Shown piece after piece: positions 16,958 through 35,846 of a DNA stretch of 41,602 nt (its first letter is position 1; each line of letters starts with the position of its first letter). The stretch is from positions 1-41,602 of IMG/VR virus record IMGVR_UViG_3300045988_096059; one strand, given 5' to 3'. The notes under the pieces are model-generated. The model was not told the DNA's origin. It ran no database searches and was given only the letters and a program-made list of their open reading frames with translations. The position numbers were made by a program, and so were the translations under genes. Source of the DNA: a virus.

Positions 16958-16998
16958 CTTCGGCTACTCGTTTTATTTTGAAAGATGGAGGTGATGAC

Positions 16999-18339
16999 GT
17001 GCGATGTGCACTTTATATCAGAGTATCCTCTGATGAACAAAAAAGAAACGGTTTCTCTCTGCCAGAGCAAAGGCACGCTCTGATGCAGTACGCTAAGGAA
17101 AAGGGATACACCATAGTAGACCTTTATGCAGATGAGGGAGTGTCTTCTTCCAAAAATCCGCAGCGCAGACATGAGTTTCAACGTATGCTTTCCGATGTTA
17201 AAAAAGGAAAGATAGATATTATCGTATTCCTCAAGTTAGACAGGTGGTATCGAAATGTTGGAGACTATTACCTCACGCAGGCAATCCTAGACCAATACGG
17301 CGTGAAATGGGAGTGCGTCGTCGAGAAGTACGACACGACCACCAGAACCGGTAAACTGGGGCTTAACATCAAGCTTACCGTAGCAGAAGACGAATCCGCC
17401 AATGCCAGCGAGCGTGTCAAATTCGTTCAGGCTGGCAAAGTCAGAAATCGTGAGCCTATCACTGGCAATCAGCCGTTCGGTTACAAAATCGAAACGATTG
17501 ACGGAGTGAAACGAATCGTCAAGGACCCGGAAACACAGGCAGAATGCGAAGATATGTTTGAAACGTTCTTCGCCACTGGATCCGGCGGAGCTACCAGTAA
17601 ATATATCAATGCCAAGTATGGGAGAAGTCTTGCCGAAAACGCAATACCACGCAGACTGAAAAATCCTTTTTATACGGGAGAATATCGTGGAGTGCCAGAC
17701 TATTGTCCGGCATACATCACAAAGGAACAACACGCTCGCATACTAGCTATCTTCGCCAAGCGTACACGGAGCACCAAGCGGAAAAAAGTATATCTGTTCG
17801 CAGGGCTTATCAAATGCCCTGTATGCGGAAGAACTATGGTGAGCTGTACCATGAACAAGAAAACCCTCGGATACCGATGTCGTCATCATTATATGAATAA
17901 GTGTACGTTTGTCCATACCATAACCGAAGAACGCATAGAAAGCTTTCTCCTTGAAAATATAGGCTCGATGCTTGAGCAATACCTGATTTCATACAAAGAA
18001 CAGAACAAAGCGAAAAAAAAGCCTGACCCCCGGAAGTTGGAGGACAGGCTCTCTCGATTAAACAACATATACATGATGGGCAACATCTCTGACAGTGAGT
18101 ACACGAAAAAGGCAAACGAAATAACGGCTCAAATTGCCGCTATAAAGTGTGCAAACAGCAACGACCTTCCAATCCCCGAAGAGTCCATAAAACTCCTGTC
18201 AGACAAGCGATTTGCCACCTTGTACGCTGACTTGCCACGGGAAAGCCGCAAGGCTCTGTGGATGAGTCTCATTGATTCAATCGAGGTTGAGGGGCTTTAC
18301 CCGAAGCAAGTCTTTTTTATCGGTCAGGAAAGACTCTAA
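16999..18339 (+). CDS. int: large serine recombinase (integrase)
   Basis: N-terminal resolvase catalytic domain (ALYIRVSSDEQ...GFSLPEQ), recombinase domain and zinc ribbon (CPVCGRTM...YRCRHH), plus a C-terminal coiled coil. GTG at 16999 is preceded by GGAGGTG (track start 16978). Confidence 0.93.
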   Translation: MRCALYIRVSSDEQKRNGFSLPEQRHALMQYAKEKGYTIVDLYADEGVSSSKNPQRRHEFQRMLSDVKKGKIDIIVFLKLDRWYRNVGDYYLTQAILDQYGVKWECVVEKYDTTTRTGKLGLNIKLTVAEDESANASERVKFVQAGKVRNREPITGNQPFGYKIETIDGVKRIVKDPETQAECEDMFETFFATGSGGATSKYINAKYGRSLAENAIPRRLKNPFYTGEYRGVPDYCPAYITKEQHARILAIFAKRTRSTKRKKVYLFAGLIKCPVCGRTMVSCTMNKKTLGYRCRHHYMNKCTFVHTITEERIESFLLENIGSMLEQYLISYKEQNKAKKKPDPRKLEDRLSRLNNIYMMGNISDSEYTKKANEITAQIAAIKCANSNDLPIPEESIKLLSDKRFATLYADLPRESRKALWMSLIDSIEVEGLYPKQVFFIGQERL

Positions 18340-18371
18340 CGTACATGACAGTTCTGTCACGTTACTTAGAG
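18334..18371. other. Candidate attP core: imperfect inverted repeat around TGACAG-TT-CTGTCA
   Basis: CTCTAACG-taca-TGACAG TT CTGTCA-CGTTActtaGAG, in the 42-bp gap between the convergent int gene and 18382..18825. Confidence 0.3.
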
Positions 18372-18381
18372 GCTACCATCC

Positions 18382-18825
18382 CTATACCATAGTGAAGTAT
18401 TTTGCAACCTTATACGGTGGTGCGTCCTCGTCGTTCAGGAAGTCCTGTGCCAAGTCGAAATAGAAGTCCGGAGAGTCACCTGCATATTTCTGTCCAGTAT
18501 CCTTGGAGTCGTTATAATACATATTCATTGCCAGATAAAACTCTTTAAAGTGGTCTTCTAGTCCTTTGGATTTCACAAAATTTACAACGTCTTCATATGT
18601 CCACCGCTCGCCTACCGGAGTCATGCCGTGTACTTTCTCCTGTGCCCATGCCAAGTCAAAATTATAAAGAATTTCTTCCGCACGATTTATAAGACTGCGG
18701 TACACGTCCGGATTGTTCTGTCTGACATAATCAGCGGCGGAATAATAAATTTCATTCGCTTCTCGCATCTTACATTTATCATCGCCCTCATAGATGATGT
18801 CAGTAACTTCTTTTAACCCTTTCAC
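18382..18825 (-). CDS. hypothetical acidic/aromatic-rich protein (147 aa)
   Basis: GTG start is preceded by GGAGGTG. No family recognised. Confidence 0.6.
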   Translation of the reverse strand: MKGLKEVTDIIYEGDDKCKMREANEIYYSAADYVRQNNPDVYRSLINRAEEILYNFDLAWAQEKVHGMTPVGERWTYEDVVNFVKSKGLEDHFKEFYLAMNMYYNDSKDTGQKYAGDSPDFYFDLAQDFLNDEDAPPYKVAKYFTMV

Positions 18826-18838
18826 GGTATCACCTCCG

Positions 18839-19246
18839 TTACAGTTTTGTTACTGTCACAGCCGCATTATTTGTAGTGACTTCCTGACCGCTGATTACCA
18901 CCGTCAGATTTGCTCTTGATTCTCCACAGCAAGCGACTCTGACAAGACATGCTAACGGGATTGTAACAACATCATTTGCCGCCGCTGTTACTGTGCCGGT
19001 AGCTCCCGGAACAAGTGCTCCATCTTTATACAGTGATGCTGTTACTGCGCCTGCTGCCGAAGCTGTGACTGTGATTGTAGCGTTCACTTCATAATAACCC
19101 CTGTCAAAGAGTGTGATTGCATTACCGTTCAGGTTTGCTCCATTTCCAAACCTCCGGATAATCTGCGTAAGCGGAAGTGCGCTTCCTACCGGTATAGAAG
19201 TTCCTGCTGTAGTATTTACAGCGTACAGTGCTGATTTACAACTCAT
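18839..19246 (-). CDS. BclA C-terminal / C1q-TNF-like beta-jelly-roll protein (135 aa)
   Basis: The alternating beta pattern ...IPVGSALPL......G..L.GNAITL.D.GYYEVNATITVT......VTASLYKDGALVPGA... resembles BclA-CTD heads. It has no collagen stalk. RBS AAAGGAGAA. Confidence 0.5.
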   Translation of the reverse strand: MSCKSALYAVNTTAGTSIPVGSALPLTQIIRRFGNGANLNGNAITLFDRGYYEVNATITVTASAAGAVTASLYKDGALVPGATGTVTAAANDVVTIPLACLVRVACCGESRANLTVVISGQEVTTNNAAVTVTKL

Positions 19247-19261
19247 TATGTTCTCCTTTCA

Positions 19262-19291
19262 TTAAAAAGGGGGCGGTAAAACACCGCCCCC
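19262..19291 (-). terminator. Intrinsic terminator after the 211-aa gene
   Basis: Minus-strand RNA GGGGGCGG-UGUUUUA-CCGCCCCC followed by UUUUUAAU. Confidence 0.75.
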
Positions 19292-19310
19292 ATACCCCTT
19301 GTCAAACTGA

Positions 19311-19946
19311 CTAAATGTTTGCATAGTTTCCGCAACAACTGTTTGCTGTGTACGGACTTGCTGTGATGTACGCAGGTTTTGCTACCGGCTGTAACTGTCC
19401 AATTAGGTACGCATTCTGTGCACACTGACTGTTAGCTAACTTTTCGTCGGCAAGCTTGTCTCTAAGAGCCTGCATTTCATTCTGTGTGATGAGTGCCCTT
19501 GTTGCTTCTCCTTCTGCGTGGATTGCGTTCGTGATTGTGCATGTGTTCTGTGCGTTCTCGAATTTCACAGAATCAATGTTTCTGTTGGTTTCGCAACAAC
19601 ACTGAGACTGCTGATATCCGAGCTGTGCTACACTTGCTCCAATCTGGTTCAGATCCTGTAGTGCATTATACGCCTGATCCTTGATGATTGTAGACACGTC
19701 ATAGCCTGCCTGTCTGGTAGCCGCTACGCCCTCGTTCATCTGACGTTCTAATGCCGCAAAGTTGAACTGGTTCTGCACGTCTTCCGTGGTAGCACACTGT
19801 CTGCTATTGTTATTCCACCCACCGAAGCCATTGCCGCCCCATGCGAGCAGGAAAAACAGCATCATGACCCACATATAGCCACCGCCATACATTCCGTCAC
19901 TGTCCCGATTATTCATATCGAATACCGGCTGTACTCCATTGTCCAT
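19311..19946 (-). CDS. membrane-anchored Gly/Gln/Cys-cluster protein (211 aa)
   Basis: RBS AAAGGGGGA. N-terminal MYGGGYMWVMMLFFLLAWGGNGFGGW (YjcZ-like Gly-rich TM), a long helical region, QCCCETNR and C-terminal NSCCGNY. Confidence 0.65.
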   Translation of the reverse strand: MDNGVQPVFDMNNRDSDGMYGGGYMWVMMLFFLLAWGGNGFGGWNNNSRQCATTEDVQNQFNFAALERQMNEGVAATRQAGYDVSTIIKDQAYNALQDLNQIGASVAQLGYQQSQCCCETNRNIDSVKFENAQNTCTITNAIHAEGEATRALITQNEMQALRDKLADEKLANSQCAQNAYLIGQLQPVAKPAYITASPYTANSCCGNYANI

Positions 19947-19969
19947 GAGTTATCCCCCTTTCATTTTTA

Positions 19970-20206
19970 TTACTTAAAGCCGCCCATGCGACTGAAAGCT
20001 CCCATCAGCTCGTCAAAGTTGACTCCTGTCTGATTGCATATGTTTCTAACCACCTGTTCCATTTGCGGTGGTGTCTTGCCCTGCATCATCTGCATTGCTC
20101 GTGAGAAATTAGGATTATTCCCGAAGCTCTGCATCATTGCTTGCATTGGATTCTGCGTTCCCATTACAGGAGCAAACATTTGCATTATCTGATCTGGATT
20201 GAACAT
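19970..20206 (-). CDS. Met/Gln/Asn-rich small protein (78 aa)
   Basis: RBS AGGGGGAG 6 nt upstream of the ATG. Sequence NPMQAMMQSFGNNPNFSRAMQMMQGKTPPQ. Confidence 0.6.
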   Translation of the reverse strand: MFNPDQIMQMFAPVMGTQNPMQAMMQSFGNNPNFSRAMQMMQGKTPPQMEQVVRNICNQTGVNFDELMGAFSRMGGFK

Positions 20207-20543
20207 TCTCTATCTCCCCCTTTAGTGCTATGATCGCACTCTCCACTTTTCTAAGACGTTCGCCTATTTTATCTTCCGGTGACTGTATCGGTTCCGGAGA
20301 ATACGCCGTTATCTCCGCAACTCCGTCCAGATTGATACATTTTGTATAGATTTTGCCGTTCGTTACGTCCATAAACACACATTTTGTGCCATCAAGAGCG
20401 ATTCTGGCGGCTTTTACCTCTTCGATGGATGAAACTGGCTGACACGTCATAAAGTTTTGCTGTGGTGGCATCACCGGCGGTGTCTGCGGTGTGTACTGCG
20501 GATACATTCGCCCTATTGGCTGTCCGTATTGCTGATAATTCAT
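20115..20543 (-). CDS. Pro/Gln-rich N-terminus protein (142 aa)
   Basis: RBS GGAAAGGGGAAG. Sequence MNYQQYGQPIGRMYPQYTPQTPPVMPPQQNF, then a small globular segment and a coiled coil. The last 92 nt overlap the next gene. Confidence 0.6.
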   Translation of the reverse strand: MNYQQYGQPIGRMYPQYTPQTPPVMPPQQNFMTCQPVSSIEEVKAARIALDGTKCVFMDVTNGKIYTKCINLDGVAEITAYSPEPIQSPEDKIGERLRKVESAIIALKGEIENVQSRSDNANVCSCNGNAESNASNDAELRE

Positions 20544-20571
20544 TTTTCTTCCCCTTTCCTATGTTTATTGT

Positions 20572-20609
20572 AAAAAAAAAGAACCCTCCGGAAGTAATCC
20601 GAAAGGTTC
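20572..20609 (-). terminator. Strong intrinsic terminator ending the late operon
   Basis: Minus-strand RNA GAACCUUUCGG-AUUACUU-CCGGAGGGUUC (11 bp including 2 GU pairs) followed by U9. Confidence 0.85.
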
Positions 20610-20617
20610 TCAAAAGT

Positions 20618-20848
20618 CTATAAAAAGTTATTCAGTTTTTCCAGACATCGCCGATGCTTTGCCTTTATGGTTCCTTCACAATATCCAAGCATATCACCAA
20701 TATAGCCAAAGTTTTTCCCTTTTAAATAGTGGAGTCTTAAAATCTCTTTTTCATCATCTGTTAAAACACATTGCTCCAATAATTTTTCAAACTCTTGCAC
20801 TCCACATATACGACGAAGCTTGCGCCTCGTCTCTATGTGGTTACTCAT
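20618..20848 (-). CDS. sigma-70 region-4-only HTH protein (76 aa)
   Basis: LTDDEKEILRLHYLKGKNFGYIGDMLGYCEGTIKAKHRRCLEKL is a sigma70_r4/LuxR-type HTH. Confidence 0.7.
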   Translation of the reverse strand: MSNHIETRRKLRRICGVQEFEKLLEQCVLTDDEKEILRLHYLKGKNFGYIGDMLGYCEGTIKAKHRRCLEKLNNFL

Positions 20849-20859: not shown

Positions 20860-23800
20860 TTACATTCTCGCTGTGGTTTTCTTACGTATCTTTGCCGTCT
20901 TGCTCTTGAAACTGGAATCAATAGGGGAATCCCAGTCTTTCAGATTAACCGCACTCACTTTGCCACTATTGGACAGTGCGTCCTTTACATAGCTTTCCCA
21001 TGACGGCATGTTGGTCTTCTTGGTGGAGGTAGAAGAGCTTCCAGAACGTCCGGAACGACGACGACCACTTCTACCATAGCCGCCCCTACCTCTGCCGGAG
21101 CTGACTTTATCCAGCTTGTCAAAGCTAAGATAGTTTGGGATACGTCCGTAAGGATTCTTTGCAGAAGATCCCTTGAGGTATTCAAACAGGCAGGCTTTTT
21201 CTGCCTTAGAGGAAAGCCCCAGACTATCTATGTACTTTACAAGTTCCTTTTTGTTCAGACTGCCGTTACCGTCTTCGTCGCACTGATACACTGACATAAA
21301 CTTATGCTCCGTCAAAGACTTAAAGGTGTATCCGAAATTTTTCAGTCCCACTCCCATGTTGGCTTTCTGTTCACTCAACCCAAGTGCACGGTATGTACGC
21401 TCCTTGATGTTAAAACCTGCAGCGGAAACAGCTTTATTCGCAGTGGATGTTGAAACTCCCGCCTTGTTTATGCCAGATGCGATATTACATGAGGCATTAG
21501 TGAATTCTTTTCTGTTGCCGCCAGAGTTAAGATACTCTTTTGCCGCCTTTACTTTATCTGTATGGATCCCATAAGCTGTAGCCATTTTATCGTTTCCGGA
21601 CAAAGCGACTGCCATTGCCTTGATATAATAATCAGAAGCGTGCGATCTAGCAATCAATTTCTCCTTCTGAATGTAAAAGTTAACAAACTCTTTGTCCGTA
21701 CCGCCAAGCATTTTGTTTGCTCTGCGTGCTTCTTTGTCGTTTTCTTCATTCTTCGCGATACGATTTGCGGCAAACTTAGCACCATAGGTTTTCAGGTCAG
21801 CGCAAGTCTGCCCGATCCAGTGTGCATCCTTGACTTCGGATGATTTCATTTTCCAGGTCATATTTTTGTACGATTTCGCATCGATCATATCCTTGATGCC
21901 ACTTGCCTGCTGTCTCCGGCTTTCTTTGCCGAATTTGTACGCTTCATCGTAGGTCATGCGCTTACCATTGCCAAGATCGTAGCTTGGGTTTCCGGTGAAG
22001 TTGTAGAAGAAAAACTTCTTGTCGTTCCCCTCTTCCATATGATTATAAATTGCAATGATCTCCTTGTCCATTTTTGTGAACTTGATTTCCTTGACATTGG
22101 AAGGATTCACAAAAGACTGCAGCAGTCTTGTGACAACGTTATTGCCATTTTCGACGTCGTTTCCGAACCGGTCAACCTTTGGGTTCAGCAGTTTATTTCT
22201 AAGCCCAGGAACACGATTTATCATCTTCCTGCGCCACGAATCCCATGACTTGGAAACAGGGTTTTCCTTGGTGGAGCGTGTATCTCTCATTTTGCTGTCG
22301 AGTGCTCCCGCTAACTGCGAGGACACCTGTGGAACAAATCCATTAAGATACCCCTGCGGTACAGAACCAAACAACGCCTGGAACGCTGCTCCGCTCCAAT
22401 CAGCTTCGCCATTGCCCTGACGGTATGCCTGGTCAATGAAGTTTTCGACGGTATCCTTTGTCCCCGACATAAACGACATGTCAAGCATAGGACCCGTCAT
22501 AGCAGTAAGACAATTCCAGACAGCCATAGGCTGCCACCCATCAGCAGTTATTTCATTCCACACTTGCGCTCCCATAAACAATGAACTTTGCATCGGGGAA
22601 GCCCAGTCTATCGTCCAAGAGTATTCCTTGCCGTTCGGGAAGTGAATGTTCAGTGAGTAGTCCTGAAATCCCATATCACGGTCATAATATGCGTCTCCGG
22701 ACACATTGCCAGCCTTTACGGTAATGACTCCGCTTTCCGCCAGATACATTCCTAACCCGAAAACACCTGTCCCAGTAAGCCCGGTGGCAAGGTCATGAAG
22801 CCCCTGTTTGAATAATTCAGGGTCTTCTTGCTTAACCAGTTTTGTTGTTGCTCTGATAAGCGATATCGGGGAAAAGTCAACACTTCGCCTGAATACATTA
22901 ACTGGGGTTTTTACAAACGGTACAGAGGATTCAAGAGCGGCGTTGGCAAGCCTGTATCCGGCAGTGCCAAGACGTGTTTTCCCTTTTGCTCCCTCTGTTT
23001 TCTGCTTCAATCCTGTGAGCCAAGAACTGAATTGTGTCGTGTCTCGGAAAGTCGCATATTCAGCTTTAAACAAAGCATAGTTTCTCGCTTCATTCTTCTG
23101 CTCCGCTGTGAGATTCTTAATATCCCATCCCTTAGACTCGCACTTTCTGACGTAGTTCTTCTTAAATTCTGGGATGAACGTAAGCATATCTTCTTTTTCT
23201 AATAGATTGTAATTCTTATTCACCATCCACCGCAGAGCCTTCCACTCTACTGCGGTTACTCCTTCTGGGCGTGTGGACTCGATATATCGGTTGATGCTTC
23301 CGGAATTATCATAGGCTTCCTTAAATTCTTTATCTAAAAGCTCTTTGTTTTCCTTGATTATCTTCCGGTCAACCTTTACCATGTCAACTTCGCCGCCGAG
23401 TTTTTCAATGTGGCTTTTTGCCATTTTATTCATGACCACTTCCATGCCGTCAGATAGACTTCTTACCGCCTTGAACATATAGTTACCCACTAGATTTCGC
23501 TCATGAGTTTTCAGGTTGCCGAGCATGGACAGGTGTCTGATTTCATTGAACTTTTCAAAGAGTGTTGCCGGTATCTTATCCCAGATTTCCCGGTTGATTT
23601 CATCCATCACATCTGTGATTTCATCGTCGCTTGCATTTAAGATGCGCTGTACCTGATCCTCTGTTAGTTCCAGTTTCCCGTTTTTCAAACGACTGCTGTA
23701 TCTACTGTTCAGCCGGTCAATATCTTTGAGTGCCATTCGCACCCTTCCTTCCGGCGTAGTCTTTACCAGAAGTTTTGCGGCATTGAGGGCGCGTCCGCTG

Positions 23801-26800
23801 AAAGATGCCAACTCGTTTGCCTTTTCCAGTACGTTCATCATCTGTTCTGCTGCAGCTTTGTCTCCGGCTTCGAACCGCTTAGAAAGTTCTTCGGAAAGTG
23901 CCCGTGCTCTTGCAAAAGCAACGTGAGCATCCTTATCCGGGAGTCCATTCAGCGTGTCAGTATCAAGGAAGTTCTTATAACAGCGCATGAAATCATCGTC
24001 AATTTCTCTTGCAACAAATTCCTTAGCATCTGCCTGTGTGTATCCCTTTGCTTTGCCGAATACGCCATCTGCCGCCTTTTCATCAAATATGGCTTCCAGT
24101 TCCTCATTCCCTTCAACGAAGAGCTTTCTTGTTTTCTGGGCGTTACGTCCCATCTCACCATCAGAAGCTACTTTGCGAACGTCTTTCATAATATCAGATG
24201 CTGGCGGATTTTCTTTCTTTATCTGTTCCCCGGCAGTCTTTGCCATAACGACTTTGTCAGCATTGTCGTAAGCTGCCTTAGACTCTGCCATCCAGTTTTC
24301 CTGTGCTTTCGGATCTTTTTCGATTTTAGCTATGGTCTCTCTCTGCACCTTGGATACAGGTGTGTTCTCTACCATATCCATAGCCTTCTGCGGACTTGTT
24401 CCCATCTTCTGCAGCTGATCCAGAATATCATCATCCGTAAAGCCGTTTTTCCGCATGGAGTCAATGTGACGCACGATTGCTTCGTCGTTGGCTTTCACCG
24501 TCTGCCTTGCTTCTTCGGATTTTGCAATCGGTTCAGCAGATTTTACATTATATGCCCCTGCGTCGATTGCTTCATTGAAGTTTTTAACGGTGGTGTCTGA
24601 TACTTCTTTACCCACACGTTTGCTGATATACGCTTCGTTTGCCGGAACTTTTTCTCCGAGAATATCTGTATACCCATTCCGCAGCCGTTCATCAAGAAGC
24701 AGCTCGATTCTCTTTGAAACAGCATTGTCAGCCTTAGAACCGCCTTCTATAATGTCGTTTAGCCCTTTTTCAATCTGCTTATAACTATACTTGTACTCGT
24801 CACGCAGGAATGCTATATCGTCGGTAGTCATTCTGGAAGTACCAAAATATCCGCCGGAGTATCCGTTGTTCTCATTTACAACAGGTGAAAAAGTCTTTTC
24901 GCCTTTAACACTCTCATTAAGGTCTCTAAGCATTATCTTTGCTTCGTCCTGGATGTGTTCCTTTAATTCCGGACTTTCATTTGCGATAGCTTTAACATTC
25001 CTTTTTGAAACGTCCTTCATGGTTCTCTTAGGTGCAGGAGCACTCGCTCCGGAACGTTCCTTTACTGCATTATAGTTATCCAGAAGCTGTACTGCTTCAT
25101 CAAACTGTGCCGGTGTTAAATCATCAAATGACTTCGCATTAAAGTAATTCAGAATGTCTTCCTGCGAAACGGCTCTCGTTGTAGCCGGAACGTCTTCTGC
25201 TTTCAAGTTTGCAATACGTTCCGCATTGTTTGCGTCACGCTTTGCTACGTCTGCCGCTGTGAGAGACTTCACCTCCGGCAGGGCTGTAAACGGTTTTTCC
25301 TGCTTTGCCCGAAGTTCGTCTACTGCTCTCTGTCCGGCTCTCTCTGCTACAGTATTCTTCGCCTGTGCTATGGCTTTCTGCAAGAACTTAGTCTCTGCCG
25401 GTGTCAATTCAATACCGGACTTCTGTTTTGCTAAAATCTTCACAGTCTTCTGCAAGTCTTTGGATGTCAGCTTGCTTACAGCTTTTGTCCCTACGTCGAT
25501 ACCACCACCGACCAACAGGTCTAATCCGGTGTTTAATGCAAAGGCTTTCCCTGCCTCTCCCCAGTGCACATTGCCGTTTTCATCCGTGGCGGATTTTATA
25601 GCGTCAGAAGCATTGAGCGGAGAAGATACTGCCGCATCTGCCACACGACCGGCTACAAAGCGTTTGGTTGCCGTTGTGCCGCTTTTTCCTGCGGTCTTGG
25701 AGGCATTCTTCGCCGCGGCGGAAATCATCGCTCTGGACGCATCGTCGAGCTGTCCACGCACAAGTCTCTTTGCAGTACCTTTACCGGCTATCTTGAGTCC
25801 TGTTTTCGCTCCGTTTTTCGCAAGTGCTTTAGATGCTTGCTTTGTGCCCATATTTTTGAGCAGTCCCTTTGCGATTCCGCTTTCACCGGCACCAAGTCCG
25901 CCGCCAAGGAAAAACGAGCCCACCTGTCCTGCCATGTATCCAGCCTTATACGCCGTTGAGTCCTTAGACTTCCTGTTCTGCACTTTTTCTCCATTGGAGT
26001 ATGTGCCGGACCCCATTCTATCCAAAGATACCGGAAGAGGGTTCAATCCTTCCATGGCACCGGATGCAAACTTGCCCTTTTTCAGTGCCGCAGTGTTCAG
26101 ACTTCCTACGGTCTTGGCAAGGTTTTTCCCGAGTGCGGCGTTCTTAGCCTCCACACTTGGCATCCGCTCGGCGTTCTGCAACCTTAAATATTCATCACTC
26201 GTAAGATTCCGGTATTTCAGTGTTTTAGGGAGTGCCTTATCGACAGCCTTATCGACCTTAGCCTTTGCTTCCGGCATATATTCCTTGATAGCCTGCTTCT
26301 TCTGGCTGTCTGTGAGCTTCCCGTGCTCTTTTTCGTTACTAAGGTCTTTATATGCGTCTCCGTATGCTTTGGAGTAGCCTGCCACCTTTGCAAGCCCTCT
26401 TGCCATTCCAGTATTCGTTTTATATGATTTCGTCTTTACCTTTGCACCGAGAGCGTCTATCTTTTTCGCCTTTGCTACAGCTTGCTTACCGTCAGCACGC
26501 AGATTATCCCTCCACGTCTTGTTTTTCTGCTGATTTGCAGCTGCTTTTTTCTGCGCATTACGCATTTTGGTGAGCTTTAAAGAGGCTTGGGCTACCTTCT
26601 GTGCCGCCTGACGTTTCCGCTCTTTTTCCGCCGCCGCTCTTTTAGCCGCTTCCTGTGCCGCCCGTGCCGCAGCTTGGGCAGCCTGTGCCACATCATTCCT
26701 ATTAGAGGATTCTTTTTTCTTATTTGCGGCTTTCTGAACACTTTTTTTGAAGGCGGTTTTTTTTGTCTGCTTTGCGACTTGGCGCATAATGGATGCAAAT

Positions 26801-26820
26801 GACGTTTTCTTCTTAGCCAT
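20860..26820 (-). CDS. giant virion-associated / polyvalent-like protein (1,986 aa)
   Basis: Uninterrupted ORF with RBS GAGGGAG. It has a Lys/Ala-rich N-terminus, Gly-rich hydrophobic segments, long helical regions, an EF-hand loop DEDGNGSLNKKE and an Arg/Gly/Ser tail. No enzymatic motif recognised by eye. Confidence 0.8.
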   Translation of the reverse strand: MAKKKTSFASIMRQVAKQTKKTAFKKSVQKAANKKKESSNRNDVAQAAQAAARAAQEAAKRAAAEKERKRQAAQKVAQASLKLTKMRNAQKKAAANQQKNKTWRDNLRADGKQAVAKAKKIDALGAKVKTKSYKTNTGMARGLAKVAGYSKAYGDAYKDLSNEKEHGKLTDSQKKQAIKEYMPEAKAKVDKAVDKALPKTLKYRNLTSDEYLRLQNAERMPSVEAKNAALGKNLAKTVGSLNTAALKKGKFASGAMEGLNPLPVSLDRMGSGTYSNGEKVQNRKSKDSTAYKAGYMAGQVGSFFLGGGLGAGESGIAKGLLKNMGTKQASKALAKNGAKTGLKIAGKGTAKRLVRGQLDDASRAMISAAAKNASKTAGKSGTTATKRFVAGRVADAAVSSPLNASDAIKSATDENGNVHWGEAGKAFALNTGLDLLVGGGIDVGTKAVSKLTSKDLQKTVKILAKQKSGIELTPAETKFLQKAIAQAKNTVAERAGQRAVDELRAKQEKPFTALPEVKSLTAADVAKRDANNAERIANLKAEDVPATTRAVSQEDILNYFNAKSFDDLTPAQFDEAVQLLDNYNAVKERSGASAPAPKRTMKDVSKRNVKAIANESPELKEHIQDEAKIMLRDLNESVKGEKTFSPVVNENNGYSGGYFGTSRMTTDDIAFLRDEYKYSYKQIEKGLNDIIEGGSKADNAVSKRIELLLDERLRNGYTDILGEKVPANEAYISKRVGKEVSDTTVKNFNEAIDAGAYNVKSAEPIAKSEEARQTVKANDEAIVRHIDSMRKNGFTDDDILDQLQKMGTSPQKAMDMVENTPVSKVQRETIAKIEKDPKAQENWMAESKAAYDNADKVVMAKTAGEQIKKENPPASDIMKDVRKVASDGEMGRNAQKTRKLFVEGNEELEAIFDEKAADGVFGKAKGYTQADAKEFVAREIDDDFMRCYKNFLDTDTLNGLPDKDAHVAFARARALSEELSKRFEAGDKAAAEQMMNVLEKANELASFSGRALNAAKLLVKTTPEGRVRMALKDIDRLNSRYSSRLKNGKLELTEDQVQRILNASDDEITDVMDEINREIWDKIPATLFEKFNEIRHLSMLGNLKTHERNLVGNYMFKAVRSLSDGMEVVMNKMAKSHIEKLGGEVDMVKVDRKIIKENKELLDKEFKEAYDNSGSINRYIESTRPEGVTAVEWKALRWMVNKNYNLLEKEDMLTFIPEFKKNYVRKCESKGWDIKNLTAEQKNEARNYALFKAEYATFRDTTQFSSWLTGLKQKTEGAKGKTRLGTAGYRLANAALESSVPFVKTPVNVFRRSVDFSPISLIRATTKLVKQEDPELFKQGLHDLATGLTGTGVFGLGMYLAESGVITVKAGNVSGDAYYDRDMGFQDYSLNIHFPNGKEYSWTIDWASPMQSSLFMGAQVWNEITADGWQPMAVWNCLTAMTGPMLDMSFMSGTKDTVENFIDQAYRQGNGEADWSGAAFQALFGSVPQGYLNGFVPQVSSQLAGALDSKMRDTRSTKENPVSKSWDSWRRKMINRVPGLRNKLLNPKVDRFGNDVENGNNVVTRLLQSFVNPSNVKEIKFTKMDKEIIAIYNHMEEGNDKKFFFYNFTGNPSYDLGNGKRMTYDEAYKFGKESRRQQASGIKDMIDAKSYKNMTWKMKSSEVKDAHWIGQTCADLKTYGAKFAANRIAKNEENDKEARRANKMLGGTDKEFVNFYIQKEKLIARSHASDYYIKAMAVALSGNDKMATAYGIHTDKVKAAKEYLNSGGNRKEFTNASCNIASGINKAGVSTSTANKAVSAAGFNIKERTYRALGLSEQKANMGVGLKNFGYTFKSLTEHKFMSVYQCDEDGNGSLNKKELVKYIDSLGLSSKAEKACLFEYLKGSSAKNPYGRIPNYLSFDKLDKVSSGRGRGGYGRSGRRRSGRSGSSSTSTKKTNMPSWESYVKDALSNSGKVSAVNLKDWDSPIDSSFKSKTAKIRKKTTARM

Positions 26821-27465: not shown

Positions 27466-27759
27466 TTACCGAGAAGCCATCCGCCTCTCGTAGTCTTCTA
27501 TCGCATGTTTGACTTTCTGCTTGTACTCGTGTGCTTCGGCAAGATCCCCGTTAGGCTCTTTGCCAAACAATGTGCACTCTACAAGCTCCTTCGTGACGCA
27601 AAATATAGCATTAAGAGCCTCAAGTGTCAGCTTTTCACGTTCTTCTTCGGCAGCTCGTCTCTTTTCTGCCTTCATCTGCTGTCTGGTGACTATTAGCATA
27701 GTCAGCCCTGATAAAATAGATGGAATTGCCGCAATGACAACTCCTTGAACCATTGTCAT
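27466..27759 (-). CDS. N-terminally membrane-anchored protein (97 aa), lysis-cassette accessory
   Basis: TM VVIAAIPSILSGLTMLIV followed by a charged helix. It lies directly downstream of the endolysin. Confidence 0.55.
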   Translation of the reverse strand: MTMVQGVVIAAIPSILSGLTMLIVTRQQMKAEKRRAAEEEREKLTLEALNAIFCVTKELVECTLFGKEPNGDLAEAHEYKQKVKHAIEDYERRMASR

Positions 27760-27768: not shown

Positions 27769-28443
27769 CTACACGTTGATATGTACGCTCGTTCCCATCT
27801 GTCTAGTGTTGGCGTAGGAATACTTCGCGCCGTATTTATATGCCAACGCTACCACCTGCCGGCGCCCGGCTGCGGTATCGCAGATGCCTTTGATATAAAT
27901 ATCTGCCGCCTTGCCCTTCTTGTGGGAAGAGTTCTTATTGCCTCCTACCTGTGCATTGTGTCTATTGCACCGCTGACCAGATCTGATATTGACTGGTCTG
28001 CCGTAATGCGCCCGGATTTTTTCCAGAATGTTCAGCAGCTTCGCGCTAGTGTTTCCTGCCGGATATCCGTTGCAGTATCTGCCTCCGCACTTGCATTTGA
28101 ATTCAGATTTTTTAAAATGTGCGCTGGATCCACCGGATGGCGTTGATACCGTTGTTCTGCCGGACGACGTACCGCCGCCAAGGTATGCCGTGCTGCCGAT
28201 CTGTGCGCAGATCCATCCGGACGGGATCTGCACCCACACCTGATTGCCTACAGTCTTGACGACTTTTACCGTCACGCGTGTGCCATTTTTCAGCACGGCA
28301 TAGGTGCCGGCTTTTGCAGCTTTTTTGCCGCTCGCCGTCAGCTCCGACCGTTTTTTCTGGCGGTAGTTTGTTCCCGGACCCGTCCGCACCTTAATTCCAG
28401 ACTTCGCGCTGATTGTATATGTTTTCCCCGCGCTAAATGCCAT
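27769..28443 (-). CDS. endolysin: SH3-like binding domain + peptidase M15 (zinc D-Ala-D-Ala carboxypeptidase-type) domain
   Basis: C-terminal FKKSEFKCKCGG...IRSGQRCNRHNAQVGGNKNSSHKKGKAADI matches the Peptidase_M15_3 motif (SG.R....N...GG...S.H..G.A.D). The N-terminus is an SH3b-like beta domain. Confidence 0.88.
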   Translation of the reverse strand: MAFSAGKTYTISAKSGIKVRTGPGTNYRQKKRSELTASGKKAAKAGTYAVLKNGTRVTVKVVKTVGNQVWVQIPSGWICAQIGSTAYLGGGTSSGRTTVSTPSGGSSAHFKKSEFKCKCGGRYCNGYPAGNTSAKLLNILEKIRAHYGRPVNIRSGQRCNRHNAQVGGNKNSSHKKGKAADIYIKGICDTAAGRRQVVALAYKYGAKYSYANTRQMGTSVHINV

Positions 28444-28446: not shown

Positions 28447-28719
28447 CTACACCTCCTCTTCCAGACTGTCGGATCCATCTCCATCTTCCTGCAACGCCTT
28501 TTTGTAGTTCTGCGCTTCTTTCGCAGCGCGGGTCACGTTGTTGTTTTTCCACCATAGCCACAGCACCGACAGCCCTGTTGCGATCTGCAATGCGATGTTA
28601 GAAAACGCCGTCTCATCGAATGGGATAGGATTCAACCCTTTCGCAGTCAGCACGCTGTTCAGCATCAGAATCGCTGCTACCAGCAGTCTGATAAACGCCT
28701 TTATTGTTTCGTTTTTCAT
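28447..28719 (-). CDS. holin (two TM)
   Basis: 90 aa, directly upstream of the endolysin. TMs IRLLVAAILMLNSVL and ALQIATGLSVLWLWW are followed by the KNNNVTRAAKEA motif and a charged tail. Confidence 0.8.
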   Translation of the reverse strand: MKNETIKAFIRLLVAAILMLNSVLTAKGLNPIPFDETAFSNIALQIATGLSVLWLWWKNNNVTRAAKEAQNYKKALQEDGDGSDSLEEEV

Positions 28720-28882: not shown

Positions 28883-29146
28883 CTACTCGGTCAGTCCGAG
28901 CTCTAAATTGATAAGTCTTTCTTCGTGGTCTACCAGCATAGATAGCGTATCCTCTTCCACCGTAGGCTCCTGCGGCTGTGGCTCTGGCTTCGGTAGCGGA
29001 TCATGGATGAATTCACCGTTTTCGTAACGGTATTCTGACACGTCTCCGTCTGGGAACGATTCAACCACATTATCGTATGTCTGCCCGTCAATGCAGGCGC
29101 AGACGGACAAGACTCTATTGTCTTCGCCTAAATTTAATGCGTACAT
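28883..29146 (-). CDS. hypothetical protein (87 aa), XkdW-position fibre-associated
   Basis: ...YRYENGEFIHDPLPKPEPQPQ...RLINLELGL, between the tail fibre and XkdX. Confidence 0.55.
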   Translation of the reverse strand: MYALNLGEDNRVLSVCACIDGQTYDNVVESFPDGDVSEYRYENGEFIHDPLPKPEPQPQEPTVEEDTLSMLVDHEERLINLELGLTE

Positions 29147-30186: not shown

Positions 30187-30858
30187 TTATTCCTCCGGTT
30201 CTATGTAATAAAGATTTCCTGTTGTTGCATCGTATTCAAAAGTACCGACTTTTCCTGACGGTCCTTGCGGTCCGGCAGGTCCTTGTATTCCCTGCACGCC
30301 TTGCTCTCCCTGCGGACCGGTTGCTCCTGTGTCGCCCTTTTCTCCTTGGATGCCTCGTTCCCCTTGGTCGCCTTTTGCACCCTTGAGCGATGCAAGCCAT
30401 TGAGCTTCCGTACCAGAGTATCCATTTTGCTTAGCGATTTCATATGCGGACAATCCGGTAGCTCCGGTCTCTCCGGTTGGACCTTGTGGACCGATTGCCC
30501 CAGTTGCGCCTTGCTTACCCTGCGGGCCTTCTGGACCTTGTGGTCCAGTATCGCCCGTATCACCTTTTACTCCGGGGACACCTTGTTCTCCCTGAATGCC
30601 TTGTATCCCTTGGATGCCCTGTTCGCCTTGGATTCCTTGTTTGCCTTCGTCTCCCTTGTCACCCTTTGCGCCTTTCAGTGATGCAAGCCACGCTTCTTCG
30701 TCTCCGACAAAGCCGTTTCTCACAGCAACTTCATATGCAGATGCTCCGTCGATGCCAGGCGGTCCCTGCTTACCCTGTCCGGAAGACTCTTTCAGTTTGT
30801 CGATAGCCTTTGCCAGTTCCGGTATGGATGCGTTATAATCTTTTCTGTTTAGCTTCAT
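30187..30858 (-). CDS. collagen-like (Gly-X-Y) tail fibre protein
   Basis: Two blocks of GXY repeats ([22 protein letters not shown]... and [22 protein letters not shown]...), each preceded by [22 protein letters not shown] at 30858 is preceded by GAGGAG. Confidence 0.85.
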
Positions 30859-30862
30859 ACCA

Positions 30863-32881
30863 TCACTCCTCATAGAACAGGAAGCCTGTGTCCGACTCAT
30901 AGATCAGATTCAACGAGTCAACATCATGTCCGGAAACATACAGATTGCTGTCTCTATCCATGAGAAGCGTGTACGTCTCAACCTCATTATTGATACGATT
31001 CTTTGAGTAGTTCCCGATAGTGTACAGCTTGACCACTTCCTGGACACCAAAGCTTTCATTCAGCAAGTCGTTTTGGATAATGAACTGCAGCCTCTTGTAC
31101 TTCTTGAACTTCTTCTTGATGTAAAAATCCTGCGGAAGGTCTGTGTTTGTACCTGCAATCGCACCGATATACACAGGTTTGTTTTCATCCGCTCGGATAT
31201 AAACCTCTGCCGAGGTGTTCGCAATGCTTCTATCCATTGACTGTATCGTCACCAGGCAGCCTTTTTTCTGCATGTTCTTGAAGTAGTGCGTCACGCCGTC
31301 ATTGTCCAAGATAGTAGTCCAGTGAGATTCTATCGGCATTCCATCATCATTGAACGCTTCGCTTCCGAACTCTGCGATAGATTTGAATCTGCAAAGTTTT
31401 CCGTCAGCCGTACCGAACCACAGCTCTTCGTTGTGCACGCAAAACGCCGTTGCCGGTACGTTCTCCCAGTAGTAGCACTCATACTGCAAATTGGAACGCT
31501 GTGTTTCCCACGAGTTCTTCTGCGTGCCGTCCATGATGTAGCAATGGTTATTCACGCACAAAATATAAAAGCGATCCCACACTACCGATACGGAGTCTTT
31601 CAGGTTCGCTTCTGCCAAAAGTTTCTTATTCACATAGTAGCTACGGTTCTGAACGGTAGCTGTTGCAAAGTAGTTTCCATTTTCTGACGACATTACCGCT
31701 GATATGCCGTATAATCCGTCCTCTGACAGGAAAACTTGCTCACCATTAAGGGAATTAAAGGACTTCTTAGAAATCGCTCCTACGCCCGTTATAGACTGTC
31801 TCACAGCATATGTGGAGTTTTCATCGAACGTCAGCGAGTACGCAAGAAATATCGTACTGCTTTCCGGGTTTGATTCTTTGACGATCCCAAGATATTCTCC
31901 AAGGTCAATCAATCCCATAACGGATGTAAAGTCGTCTCCAACTACAAAGTAGCTCAAGTCCGGGAAGTACGTCGCGTCTTCATACGCCGAGTACCAAACA
32001 TACGATTTGTACGTTCCGGATGCTCCCGAAAGAAAAATCCTGCTGTTATATACCGAGGCTACCGTGCACTGCCGTAGCTGTTCTGCGGCAGGGCTTGTTC
32101 CTGTAGCTGTATATTCCACAAGGATGTTGTCCTCTCCGGTAACGACCGGTGGCTTTGCAGAGGGAAAAGTGATTTTTCCCGTAACATAATCTACGGTGTA
32201 TCCAGAACCTTTGGTCAGCGTTACATAATCTCCGGAGCTGTTTTTTACCTTCACCGTCTCCGTACCGCTAACGATAGGCGTTGACGTGTAAAACTCCTTT
32301 GATGTTGCATCGCCTAGAAACATTTCTTTACGCTTTCGCGTCAGAAGGTTCACATTCTCGTACACCGTGCCTCCGCCGGATGCAGTTCTGCCAATCAGTA
32401 CCGTTGGTACATACGGCTGCACTTCCTTAAAGTAAAACTGCTTTGCATCACCTACAGTTTTAAAAGTGTACTCGCGGAGAACGTTGTCCGCCAGAATATA
32501 GAACGCTCCGCCGGAAATGGCATTAAAGAAAAATCCCACAACATCCGAAGCCGGATCACTCAATGTAATAAGTGCCGCCGTGTTATCTCCAAGCCCATTG
32601 TAGATGCCGTTTCCCTTTGCATACAGAATGTGAGATTGTCCGCCATAGTCAAACGACCACATTTCACGGATCTTCGCCTTCTGTTCTGCGTCTAAAGGAT
32701 TGTATTCAACCTTCCACCCGGTACGCTTGTACGGTACTCCGCCATCATCCGGGAGCATGTTCAATGCATCAGGGCTTCGCCTCTTGAAAACCTTTGTTGG
32801 ATCAGTGGTGAAATCTACGCCCTTAAAGTTCGAGTAGACCGATGTATAAACTTTCGGTTCGCTCGGTGTCTGTATTGGCAT
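30863..32881 (-). CDS. large virion tail/nozzle structural protein (672 aa)
   Basis: Beta-rich, positioned between the adaptor-like and fibre genes. RBS GGGGGG. Family not recognised. Confidence 0.6.
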   Translation of the reverse strand: MPIQTPSEPKVYTSVYSNFKGVDFTTDPTKVFKRRSPDALNMLPDDGGVPYKRTGWKVEYNPLDAEQKAKIREMWSFDYGGQSHILYAKGNGIYNGLGDNTAALITLSDPASDVVGFFFNAISGGAFYILADNVLREYTFKTVGDAKQFYFKEVQPYVPTVLIGRTASGGGTVYENVNLLTRKRKEMFLGDATSKEFYTSTPIVSGTETVKVKNSSGDYVTLTKGSGYTVDYVTGKITFPSAKPPVVTGEDNILVEYTATGTSPAAEQLRQCTVASVYNSRIFLSGASGTYKSYVWYSAYEDATYFPDLSYFVVGDDFTSVMGLIDLGEYLGIVKESNPESSTIFLAYSLTFDENSTYAVRQSITGVGAISKKSFNSLNGEQVFLSEDGLYGISAVMSSENGNYFATATVQNRSYYVNKKLLAEANLKDSVSVVWDRFYILCVNNHCYIMDGTQKNSWETQRSNLQYECYYWENVPATAFCVHNEELWFGTADGKLCRFKSIAEFGSEAFNDDGMPIESHWTTILDNDGVTHYFKNMQKKGCLVTIQSMDRSIANTSAEVYIRADENKPVYIGAIAGTNTDLPQDFYIKKKFKKYKRLQFIIQNDLLNESFGVQEVVKLYTIGNYSKNRINNEVETYTLLMDRDSNLYVSGHDVDSLNLIYESDTGFLFYEE

Positions 32882-34048: not shown

Positions 34049-34891
34049 TTACGCAATCTTCATGCGCAGGTTGATAATTTCCTTTGGAGCAGTAACTTTA
34101 CCATCGAACAGGGAGAATCCCTTTACACGATCCTGGAAGTAATCTTCCGGTCTGTCTGCTTCCAGATGCAGATACGCATCAATGAAGGAAATAGCGTTGT
34201 TGGTCTTTACCTGAATGTCACATACTCCCGTAGAGGAGAAGTGTACATTGTTGGAAGCTTTGATGATAGCACCGCCGTACATTCCTACTCTGCCGTTTCT
34301 CAGCATTTCAGAATTGTTGGTATCGAGGTCAACGTATGCCTTTTTCAGCAGCGTTACGACTTTGTGCGGTACAGTGATGGTAACCTCGGTATCTCTGTCT
34401 ACATCGTTCTCCCACAGCCCTTCGAGTGCCTCGTCAATGCAGTCTAAGATAGTGGTGTGTGTGATCAAAGAAGCCGATTTATCAATGATCTTTACCTGTG
34501 GATCAGTAACCAGTCCGGCAATGAACTTGTCCTGCTCATTCGCAACCTTGTCCTTTGCCTTTGCAGTGTACTTTCCGATGAGTCCTTCTCCGCCTTCCGC
34601 CTGTCTCTTATCGAGATCGTCAACGAAAAAGTTGAAGTCTCTGTATTCCATGATCGGAATAGTCATGGATGTACCCTGGATTTCCTGTGGAGCATCCAGT
34701 TTATGAGTTTTACCATCGTTAAAGGATCTCAGGTCAACATCGCCCAGTCCTAAAACCTTTACAGTATCGCCTACCTGTCTTGCGATACCTTCGTATTCGC
34801 GGTTTGTGTTTTCTGCGAATACGAGCTTTCTTTTGAGATCATCCTGGAATTTCTTCGCCCAGACCTCGGGGATAAAAGTTTCTACAGACAT
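34049..34891 (-). CDS. major capsid protein (HK97-fold, P22-coat/N4-gp56-like N-terminal pattern)
   Basis: FIPEVWAKKFQDDLKRKLVFAENTNREYEG.....GDTVKV is typical of this capsid family, and it sits after the scaffold. RBS GGAAAGGAG. Confidence 0.78.
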   Translation of the reverse strand: MSVETFIPEVWAKKFQDDLKRKLVFAENTNREYEGIARQVGDTVKVLGLGDVDLRSFNDGKTHKLDAPQEIQGTSMTIPIMEYRDFNFFVDDLDKRQAEGGEGLIGKYTAKAKDKVANEQDKFIAGLVTDPQVKIIDKSASLITHTTILDCIDEALEGLWENDVDRDTEVTITVPHKVVTLLKKAYVDLDTNNSEMLRNGRVGMYGGAIIKASNNVHFSSTGVCDIQVKTNNAISFIDAYLHLEADRPEDYFQDRVKGFSLFDGKVTAPKEIINLRMKIA

Positions 34892-35674: not shown

Positions 35675-35846
35675 CTTTTATCGTTGATTCAGTTTCTTCT
35701 CCGGTAGGTGAGTATGCTTTGCCGCACTCTTTGCATTCCGGATTCACGCAGGCATAGAAAAATGTCTCCACGCCGTCTTTTCTTGAAATTTTATCTAGCA
35801 GCATTTCGCTGTTACACTCACTGCACCGCCTGTTCACTGTTACCAT
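35664..35846 (-). CDS. zinc-ribbon small protein (60 aa)
   Basis: ATG at 35846 is preceded by GGGAGG. Two CxxC pairs (CSECNS ... CKECGK). Confidence 0.55.
   Translation of the reverse strand: MVTVNRRCSECNSEMLLDKISRKDGVETFFYACVNPECKECGKAYSPTGEETESTIKERE

Follow-up and report, generated by a model that had tools for sequence, protein, structure and literature searches.

The IMG/VR virus record IMGVR_UViG_3300045988_096059 (positions 1 to 41,602; this whole 41,602-nucleotide stretch is referred to here as the window) is a temperate phage genome with its late operon on the minus strand. Downstream of the lysis genes, a gene for a sigma-70 region 4 (sigma-r4) protein and the five open reading frames (ORFs) behind it constitute one conserved, horizontally mobile, terminator-bracketed accessory cassette. 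It matches no known system in the comparisons made here, although it may yet prove to be a modified lysis accessory or fibre. Its products are designated by their length in amino acids (aa) as w142, w78, w211, w135 and w147, with wSig for the sigma-like protein. Homologues were counted in a census of 139 loci drawn from IMG/VR, GTDB genomes and GenBank, the ORFs of which were searched iteratively. In transcriptional order the genes are as follows.

20618..20848, minus strand: wSig, 76 aa, sigma-70 region 4 only (PF04545, 37.6 bits against a cut-off of 24.1); homologues in 97 of 139 loci
20115..20543, minus strand: w142, 142 aa; homologues in 130 of 139 loci
19970..20206, minus strand: w78, 78 aa; homologues in 116 of 139 loci
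19311..19946, minus strand: w211, 211 aa, phrog_16490 (E = 6.8e-15 over residues 1-182); homologues in 139 of 139 loci
18839..19246, minus strand: w135, 135 aa, stand-alone BclA-C/C1q-TNF-like beta protein; homologues in 63 of 139 loci
18382..18825, minus strand: w147, 147 aa, GTG start, DUF7841 (PF25223, 41.1 bits against 25.2); homologues in 77 of 139 loci

A first-pass annotation of this DNA had described five orphan genes lying behind a sigma-r4 gene that was taken to close the late region. The ORFs themselves are confirmed: all five are present, as are the peptides MNYQQYGQPIG..., MYGGGYMWVMMLFFLLAWGGNGFGGW, QCCCETNR and SCCGNY, and a GGAGG-like site precedes each of the five starts, in agreement with the strong ribosome-binding sites reported. 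The outline of the module requires revision. The sigma-r4 gene does not close the late region, being instead the first gene of the conserved block, and the module comprises six genes when it is included. Nor are the genes orphans, since w211 falls in phrog_16490, one of the larger uncharacterised phage gene families. The statement that none of the proteins could be placed in a named family was too strong, given the assignments of w147 and w211 in the list above and a match of w135 to BclA_C below its cut-off.

The window's gene order (sigma-r4 / 142 / 78 / 211 / 135 / 147) is that of the loci examined, and co-occurrence as a block, which the first-pass annotation had proposed as a check, was found in other phage and prophage loci. 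The Clostridium perfringens isolates HMD-PC1, 17DYC, CPD1 and PMQ04 carry the trio w142-w78-w211 in the same order, with blastp E values for the three proteins of 5e-13, 2e-13 and 8e-47. Unrelated siphovirus-type prophages encode a Sigma70_r4 protein, a 124-aa protein, an uncalled 74-aa gene, a 204-aa protein, a BclA_C protein and a DUF7841 protein; there the full block follows the holin and endolysin genes and extends to the prophage border or to a serine recombinase. In further lineages the block is found between lysis and replication genes, and the flanks that were fetched contain no integrase. The description of a discrete unit bracketed by terminators was also borne out, the positions of the hairpins being conserved across loci.

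All six proteins were scanned against Pfam, PHROGs, NCBIfam and PADLOC, and the only matches were to DUF7841, Sigma70_r4, phrog_16490, BclA_C (below threshold) and a generic sigma entry; PADLOC gave no meaningful match. When profiles of the w211, w142 and w147 families were run against PDB sequences, nothing significant was returned. On reading, no signal peptide was seen on the proteins that accompany w211, and the neighbouring ORFs have neither signal peptide nor lipobox; among cassette proteins a hydrophobic segment occurs in w211 only. The families phrog_16490, DUF7841 and BclA_C have already been catalogued, none with a function in phages, and no functional or proteomic description of the cassette, DUF7841, phrog_16490, phage BclA_C proteins or the carrier phages was found in the literature searches made.

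The cassette proteins

The common member of all loci, w211, belongs to a family that amounts to 7,588 clusters when grouped at 90% identity and to 2,574 when grouped at 50%, 1,257 of the latter matching at E < 1e-10. The protein begins with an acidic tail and a Gly-flanked hydrophobic core (residues 23-37, nt 19836-19880). A low-confidence AlphaFold2 model built from 23 sequences predicts a hydrophobic helix at 23-37 and a helical hairpin formed by residues 63-120 and 128-183. A CCC motif (nt 19593-19601) would occupy the turn of this hairpin, and it is invariant in alignments of full-length homologues. The C-terminal part contains a Pro-rich LQPxxxPAYITxSPY motif followed by a C-terminal CC, and homologues often end in Gly/Tyr-rich tails with CxC motifs. 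The N-tail is nearly free of Lys and Arg, and in 205 of 223 members it carries more negative charge than the C-flank, suggesting an N-out/C-in topology. The features of a holin are absent: w211 is 211 aa long, has a single short hydrophobic segment and an acidic charge and matches no holin family, and the phage encodes a separate Holin_SPP1 protein. An apparent 375-aa fusion in locus L110 was set aside, since the ORF call probably extends wrongly into a DUF4417-like gene upstream.

The family of w135 can be related to known structures. The protein itself matches PF18573 (BclA_C) with E = 4e-4 and 20.7 bits, below the cut-off of 38, in an alignment that covers positions 3-127 of 128; among its homologues, 14 of 22 match BclA_C at E < 0.01 (best 7.3e-11). 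A profile of the family finds the BclA structures 2r6q, 2z5w and 1wck with E values of 1e-5 to 3e-5; ExsF, BxpB and cerebellin are weaker matches. The sequence pattern in alignment A7 (G.Y.V followed by late strands) would fit a jelly-roll fold, and the protein is presumably trimeric. It starts MSCKSALYAVN... and has neither an exosporium leader nor GXY collagen repeats, so the earlier description of a BclA-C/C1q-like protein devoid of a collagen stalk holds. Cysteines are found at the N-terminus (Cys3) and in a late strand (Cys100 and Cys106-107), and an N-terminal Cys with a late-strand CC or CxC recurs in the family. A match to the XM1_gp53 minor capsid family (E = 1e-3) is below threshold.

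Two low-complexity proteins are encoded ahead of w211. In w142 an N-terminus rich in P, Q, Y and M is followed by a conserved domain of some 55 aa (consensus PVsSieEakaa.idlDGs..vF.D...gKIYTK.i.ldG....tY.L; alignment A4) and a short coiled coil, and no match was found in Pfam, PDB, PADLOC or NCBIfam. The w78 protein is rich in Met, Gln and Asn (M 17%, Q 13%) and contains NPMQxMMQ repeats; its C-terminal half is small and helical, and it aligns with a 77-aa protein of phage HMD-PC1 (blastp E = 1.8e-13). Automatic gene callers often miss or shorten it. The two genes overlap by 92 nt (20115-20206), w78 being in the +1 frame; most related loci show an overlap of this type, of up to about 140 nt, and the C. 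perfringens phages one of only about 8 nt. A programmed frameshift joining w142 to w78 was considered and rejected on account of the +1-frame overlap, and the 'NANDA'-type tail of w142, which is loosely conserved, is accounted for by the w78 NPMQxMMQ repeats read in the shifted frame. Homologues of w211 from Bacteroidota and archaeal viruses carry a Met-rich N-terminal extension (..LMxMLxNKGVDPxLxAML.. in crAss-like phages) ahead of the hydrophobic core, and Firmicutes phages have a separate w78 gene in its place. This looks like a fusion or fission event, judged from a low-complexity resemblance; the w78 hidden Markov model does not detect the extension.

The last protein of the cassette, w147, is acidic and all-helical. 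Its AlphaFold2 model (pLDDT 85.6) consists of nine helices and has no PDB neighbour at E < 1 (best E = 2.7), and its fold matches in BFVD are exclusively other DUF7841 proteins, many of them from crAss-like phages. Precomputed Pfam assignments of the homologues are likewise DUF7841. A link to ribosomally synthesized and post-translationally modified peptides (RiPPs) and radical-SAM enzymes was rejected, as it comes from protein P0223 alone (285 aa, 1-kb contig), in which a HemN-like radical-SAM fragment is joined to DUF7841 and which is probably an assembly or gene-calling chimera.

Further variation is seen in a 557-aa protein, P0360, encoded at 263-1936 of the 2.9-kb contig L156. Here some 400 residues of other sequence stand in place of the hydrophobic N-terminus and are joined in frame to the C-terminal 150 residues of the w211 family. 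The N-terminal region matches phrog_4242 ('tail fiber') with E = 8e-10, largely through its coiled coil. Downstream of P0360 lie an 80-aa gene and then a DUF7841 gene. By eye, the motif 'ADQIRSR' is shared by the 80-aa protein and the product of a 119-aa gene that follows w211 in the C. perfringens phages (L001 5494-5853), which suggests that these two proteins represent a second, non-BclA partner family.

Terminators, promoter and the sigma-like protein

Three regulatory features are recognized in the window, the last of them being putative.

20570..20611, minus strand: terminator 1 (14-bp stem, 5-nt loop and T9 run; stem 20611-20579), -21.3 kcal/mol, z = -6.6
19264..19291, minus strand: terminator 2 (10-bp GC-rich stem, 3-nt loop and T5 run; stem 19291-19269), -20.8 kcal/mol, z = -3.8
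20567..20597, minus strand: putative cassette promoter, read from sequence, overlapping terminator 1 (TTACTTC at 20597-20591 in the hairpin loop, 18-nt spacer, TACAAT at 20572-20567)

Both terminators are located where the first-pass annotation had put them and are real by folding energy and z score. A GC-rich hairpin with a T-run lies directly 3' of the w211 homologue in 96 of 123 distinct loci, and since the stems are unrelated between lineages, it is the position of this hairpin and not its sequence that is conserved. A hairpin with a T-run likewise separates wSig from w142 in 38 of 74 distinct loci. The start of w142 in the window lies just 28 nt beyond the T-run of terminator 1, and the -10-like TACAAT begins right after that T-run. 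Related loci repeat the arrangement of hairpin, T-run and TA(C/T)A(A/C)T, with ATAC(T/A)(T/A)C located 17-18 nt upstream and, in some cases, extra copies of ATACTTT. Across 72 non-redundant regions upstream of w142 homologues, ATACTT, TATACT and ACTTTT are enriched 4-5x. The trio w142-w78-w211 is thus very probably, as far as the nucleotide pattern indicates, a transcription unit of its own, with a promoter that overlaps the upstream terminator. Because they lie behind terminator 2 with no visible promoter, w135 and w147 probably depend on read-through.

Homologues of wSig mostly lie directly upstream of the w142 homologue. The linkage between the sigma-r4 gene and the module that had been suggested earlier is upheld by this arrangement, by the TACAAT after the terminator and by the recurrent ATACTT-type element 18 nt upstream of it. 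The protein matches phrog_36 ('transcriptional regulator') with E = 1.3e-10, and at 76 aa, with no match to region 2, it is not a complete sigma factor. It is presumed to be a dedicated regulator of the cassette, and that it reads the odd -35 element beside its own gene is a reasonable inference from this layout. Several related proposals were discarded. A universal -35 motif was abandoned after alignment on the -10 element showed no cross-lineage conservation. A role as general late activator was dismissed, as the loose promoter pattern occurs just twice in the window, at the cassette and, inside a coding region, at 33946. A split sigma factor, with DUF7841 as region 2, has neither sequence nor fold support.

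Carriers, genomic position and mobility

Carriers were identified by record labels, and the firmer cases are relied upon here, as the binning of phage-sized contigs into metagenome-assembled genomes is unreliable. Labelled carriers include Clostridia, Negativicutes (e.g., a 545-kb Phascolarctobacterium contig), Gastranaerophilales, Treponema, Bacteroidales and Mycoplasmatota. Temperate phages of the dominant gut Clostridia have the cassette. Among Crassvirales it is present in many members of the families Suoliviridae and Steigviridae, with no annotated integrase in the regions examined, and the isolate C3_41T2LP, a phage of Bacteroides uniformis, is a carrier as well. Two viruses assigned to Methanomassiliicoccales have a w211 homologue, annotated in the record as phrog_16490. 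The crAss-like homologues of w211 are full-length, with a Gly-flanked aromatic hydrophobic core, the CCC and a ...SQQAQTANIVNQ(I/L)RPxPxPAY...C(G)C end. Their neighbours are a DUF7841 protein, a beta-rich Cys-containing protein and a protein consisting of a small domain and a coiled coil. In cr52_1 (L004 2712-6601), several crAss-like genes, the w211 homologue among them, have in-frame stops under translation table 11, consistent with stop-codon recoding. In both cr52_1 (L004 91-2622) and a Methanomassiliicoccales virus (L154 2052-5186), w211 is located just downstream of genes for a tail protein, noted in cr52_1 as similar to a major tropism determinant, and a reverse transcriptase; these two genes may constitute a diversity-generating retroelement.

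The first-pass annotation had favored a prophage-borne system for remodelling the spore surface or envelope. This conflicts with carriage by Crassvirales, Bacteroides phages, Negativicutes prophages and Methanomassiliicoccales viruses, and with the lack of a signal peptide on any partner protein. The distribution across hosts therefore argues against spore-surface remodelling and against a purely lysogenic role.

Proximity to lysis genes is a recurring feature, and most of the phages have the cassette behind them. The full block follows holin and endolysin genes in four independent phage groups. The most informative case is provided by cr116_1 and crAss001, members of the same subfamily of Steigviridae that share a collinear arrangement of gp28 (holin), gp30, gp31 and gp32 (capsid) homologues; gp30 of crAss001 is an endolysin, an L,D-carboxypeptidase. 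The gap between gp30 and gp31 is 236 nt in crAss001 (L157 14866-15102) and 3.85 kb in cr116_1 (L151 3336-7184), where it is filled by a small helix-turn-helix (HTH) gene, an unknown gene, w211, a beta-rich protein and a w142-like protein. The cassette has thus been inserted between genes that are adjacent in a relative, as is typical of morons (insertions into phage late regions that bring their own promoter and terminator). The portal-to-gp46 region of crAss001 contains no member of any of the six families and, because this phage forms complete virions without it, particle assembly does not require the cassette. The block of cr10_1 is situated between a putative holin and a transpeptidase-like lysin, and in the Bacteroides fragilis phage BF503P2, read by eye, DUF7841 directly precedes proteins that are multi-transmembrane and holin-like, M15 peptidase-like, and transmembrane with a coiled coil. 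A scan of the 3.5 kb upstream of the module, covering 135 ORFs from 42 non-redundant loci, which gives a lower bound and has no matched control, found endolysin domains to be the commonest Pfam families, in 16 ORFs (Amidase_2 in 7, GH25 in 3, M15_3 in 3, M15_2 in 2 and Amidase_3 in 1), with Phage_holin_4_1 in 4.

In the window, the surroundings of the cassette are as follows.

40013-40777, minus strand: small terminase (late operon)
37798-39309, minus strand: large terminase (late operon)
35818-37533, minus strand: portal (late operon)
34049-34891, minus strand: major capsid protein (late operon)
30187-30900, minus strand: collagen-like tail fibre (late operon; phrog_6320, E = 1e-39), noted together with 28883-29146, minus strand
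28447-28719, minus strand: Holin_SPP1 holin (canonical lysis cassette)
27769-28443, minus strand: Peptidase_M15_3 endolysin (canonical lysis cassette)
27466-27759, minus strand: 97-aa protein with an N-terminal membrane segment, directly 3' of the endolysin gene
20860-26820, minus strand: 1,986-aa ORF between the lysis cassette and the sigma-r4 gene
18340-18381, no strand: 42-nt interval holding attP (from integrated versus circular copies)
16978-18339, plus strand: large serine recombinase (Resolvase, Recombinase and Zn_ribbon_recom domains; phrog_95, E = 2.4e-100)

Downstream of the lysis genes come the 97-aa membrane protein, a 189-aa protein, the 1,986-aa ORF and then the six cassette genes, upon which the serine recombinase gene converges from the other strand; beyond the recombinase are two HTH repressor-like genes and the early genes. 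In integrated copies (L146, L147) the 147-aa gene runs directly into host genes, and in circular copies (L148, L149) it runs into the serine recombinase. Because the two kinds of copy diverge after the 147-aa gene, attP must lie within 18340-18381 and the cassette at the very end of the prophage, the attR end. The slot between lysis genes and attP proposed in the first-pass annotation is therefore confirmed. The GC content across the cassette region (0.43-0.47) is the same as that of the remaining genome, so the deviant base composition of morons is not seen.

Other features of this genome are noted for completeness. The 97-aa membrane protein has no family match and may be a second holin or an antiholin. 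The giant 1,986-aa ORF is Lys/Ala-rich at its N-terminus and Gly/Arg/Ser-rich at its C-terminus and has no match in Pfam, PHROGs, NCBIfam or PADLOC; it is kept in the sister phages L146-L149 (1,987-1,988 aa) and replaced by a 112-aa gene in L005-L008. Host genes beyond the DUF7841 gene in integrated copies encode an RsmD-like methyltransferase and CoaD and, further on, acetate kinase and L32. In the general annotation neither a tape-measure nor a tail-tube gene was recognized, pointing to a short-tailed particle. No match came from a megablast search with the late region against GenBank phages.

Possible functions and comparison with known systems

The reading put forward here, tentatively, is that the cassette acts at the cytoplasmic membrane during the lytic cycle, around lysis. 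It is proposed because carriers include lytic as well as temperate viruses and monoderm, diderm and archaeal hosts, because the partner proteins have no export signals, and because adjacency to holin and endolysin genes is found repeatedly. Control of lysis timing or of egress is more likely than lysogenic conversion. A fuller statement, in which the genes represent an undescribed, self-regulated mobile cassette of tailed viruses of Firmicutes, Bacteroidota and methanogens whose stalk and C1q-like head operate with the lysis machinery, or have been remounted on the virion in some lineages, is possible but doubtful.

The sequence of events envisaged begins with terminator 1, which would end the late operon, and with the promoter overlapping it, which would restart transcription with the help of wSig recognizing the non-canonical -35 element. 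The trio w142-w78-w211 would be made at a high level up to terminator 2, and w135 and w147 at a lower level via read-through. The Gly-flanked segment would hold w211 in the cytoplasmic membrane, with its N-terminus outside and its C-terminus inside, so that it would project a helical-hairpin stalk with CCC at the tip. The C1q/BclA-C-type head w135 may then couple to this tip via the conserved cysteines. A precedent for the coupling of stalk and head is provided by the CC motifs that couple C1q-headed fibrils to endospore appendages (PMC12357932). The Met/Gln-rich w78 might shield or escort the hydrophobic anchor, with w142 as a possible organiser and DUF7841 (w147) as a possible chaperone.

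A number of observations weigh against this proposal. None of the six proteins was found to have homology to a lysis function, and a canonical holin-endolysin pair is already in place in the phage. In Firmicutes phages a place behind the lysis genes coincides with the end of the late operon, where insertions are tolerated, and in the C. perfringens phages and Bacteroides phage C3_41T2LP the block is found among early, anti-repressor and recombination genes. The Gly-rich membrane segment reported for w211 in the first-pass annotation is present, but its hydrophobic core between the glycine runs is short (13 residues, KD19 = 1.29). The topology of the protein is read from charge bias, and its AlphaFold2 model, with pLDDT 46, is too poor for a structure search. 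Contact between w211 and w135 and their coupling through cysteines are suggested by analogy. With regard to regulation, the unbiased alignment on the -10 element yields no -35 consensus across lineages, and some loci have an ordinary TTGACG-17-GATAAT promoter at the start of the cassette instead. P0360, a single metagenomic observation in which a tail-fibre-like N-terminus takes the place of the anchor, is the only direct pointer to a virion context.

In the main rival, a serious one that the first-pass annotation had named as its alternative in the form of disulfide-crosslinked virion fibre proteins, the cassette encodes an optional virion fibre or decoration: w211 as a trimeric coiled-coil shaft, w135 as its cysteine-linked distal head, and w147, w142 and w78 as chaperones or adaptors. 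Its spread among gut viruses would then reflect adaptation of the particle to the gut (adhesion or stability) and not to a host, and carriage by both bacterial and archaeal gut viruses fits such a host-independent role. A coiled coil with a C1q/TNF-like head is a classic fibre design, the small acidic helical gene right after the head gene resembles a fibre assembly chaperone, and P0360 joins a tail-fibre-like N-terminus to the w211 C-terminal domain with DUF7841 just downstream. Depositors have annotated crAss and Bacteroides homologues as 'spike protein/glycoprotein' and 'outer capsid protein/viral fiber'; these labels probably reflect coiled-coil similarity only, and the P0360 fusion is known from one 2.9-kb metagenomic contig. 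Apart from the sub-threshold match of w135 to XM1_gp53, the five proteins have no match among the structural families of PHROGs or Pfam. For a virion anchor, an N-terminus so strongly hydrophobic and flanked by Gly would be unusual, and siphovirus-type, Crassvirales and archaeal carriers share no attachment site for a fibre. The cassette moreover lies outside the structural block, behind a terminator, and crAss001 virions are complete when it is absent. On this balance a virion fibre is a conceivable but rather doubtful role.

Lysogenic conversion or superinfection exclusion of the moron type, in which prophage-expressed proteins remodel the envelope or spore surface or block DNA entry, is an unlikely explanation. 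It would account for the location at the attR end between lysis genes and attP, for the moron-typical succession of terminator, putative promoter, genes and terminator, for the canonical sigma-A-type promoter of some loci, and for insertion by presence or absence of a unit that includes a membrane-anchored protein; the BclA-C fold is, in addition, otherwise known from exosporium proteins. Carriers nevertheless include Crassvirales and phages with no integrase in the fetched flanks, as well as viruses of non-sporulating hosts and of archaea. Partner proteins that lack signal peptides cannot reach the surface, the GC content of the cassette is like that of the remaining genome, and a machine of five to six proteins conserved across phyla is unlike the known single-protein exclusion factors. 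The version of conversion restricted to spores is the least likely of all and may be regarded as highly improbable.

A role in phage-borne defence, abortive infection or counter-defence, with w211 as membrane effector and the soluble proteins as sensors or regulators, is quite improbable: a patchily present, multi-gene accessory cassette with a membrane protein and its own regulator, at a location typical of prophage accessory loci, would suit it, yet PADLOC finds no match, enzymatic, nuclease, NTPase and signalling domains are absent from the scans, every locus examined looks viral or prophage-like rather than defence-island-like, and sequence and gene order are strongly conserved across host phyla.

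A block of six genes whose order is preserved in viruses so far apart must have a general task. Should action at the membrane around lysis prove true, the cassette would be a general, envelope-independent device for lysis timing or egress. Its unusual features include the use made of a C1q/BclA-type domain, a DUF7841 fold with no PDB match, and a region-4-only protein next to an overlapping terminator and promoter. As the anchor family alone comprises about 2,600 clusters at 50% identity, assigning the cassette a role would annotate thousands of genes now labelled 'hypothetical'. Cultivable carriers exist, and resolving the role of the cassette may reveal an unrecognised step of phage exit or a particle accessory.

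Among known systems, the i-spanins, such as Rz of lambda (which acts with Rz1), and other membrane proteins of lysis cassettes, such as XhlA of PBSX, invite comparison. The layout of w211 is that of an i-spanin, with an N-terminal hydrophobic anchor, two long helices, conserved cysteines and a Pro-rich end, and its gene is adjacent to lysis genes. Unlike an i-spanin, it has no sequence similarity and no lipoprotein partner, its charge bias suggests the opposite topology, and it is found in monoderm and archaeal hosts, where spanins have no target; crAss-like carriers of w211 have a separate LysB-like gene. With morons the cassette shares its bracketing by terminators, presence/absence insertion and location at the end of the late operon, and it probably has a promoter of its own. 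It differs from them in having six co-conserved genes instead of one, in its inconspicuous base composition and in its presence in phages with no integrase in the regions examined. As a region-4-only protein encoded upstream of a non-canonical, lineage-conserved -35 element, wSig recalls phage activators that use or appropriate sigma region 4 (RinA/ArpU-like proteins, MotA/AsiA of T4). It is unlike phage late activators in that its motif is specific to the cassette in this genome and it has no region 2.

The head protein has relatives of two kinds. The BclA and L-BclA fibrils of the Bacillus exosporium and endospore appendages share a fold family with w135, whose N-terminal Cys and CC recall the CC-motif connectors (PMC12357932). 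In contrast to BclA, w135 lacks a collagen stalk, exosporium leader and signal peptide, and is encoded by phages, those of non-sporulating hosts among them; what is presumed to be its stalk is alpha-helical, comes from a gene of its own and carries a hydrophobic anchor. Fibres with TNF-type knobs (the tail-needle knob of Sf6, reovirus sigma-1 and the adenovirus fibre) differ from the cassette in that shaft and head are here separate genes located outside the structural module, with a membrane-like start to the shaft and no structural-family match; the helical shaft with a TNF/C1q-like head, and the P0360 fusion, are the features that the cassette has in common with them.

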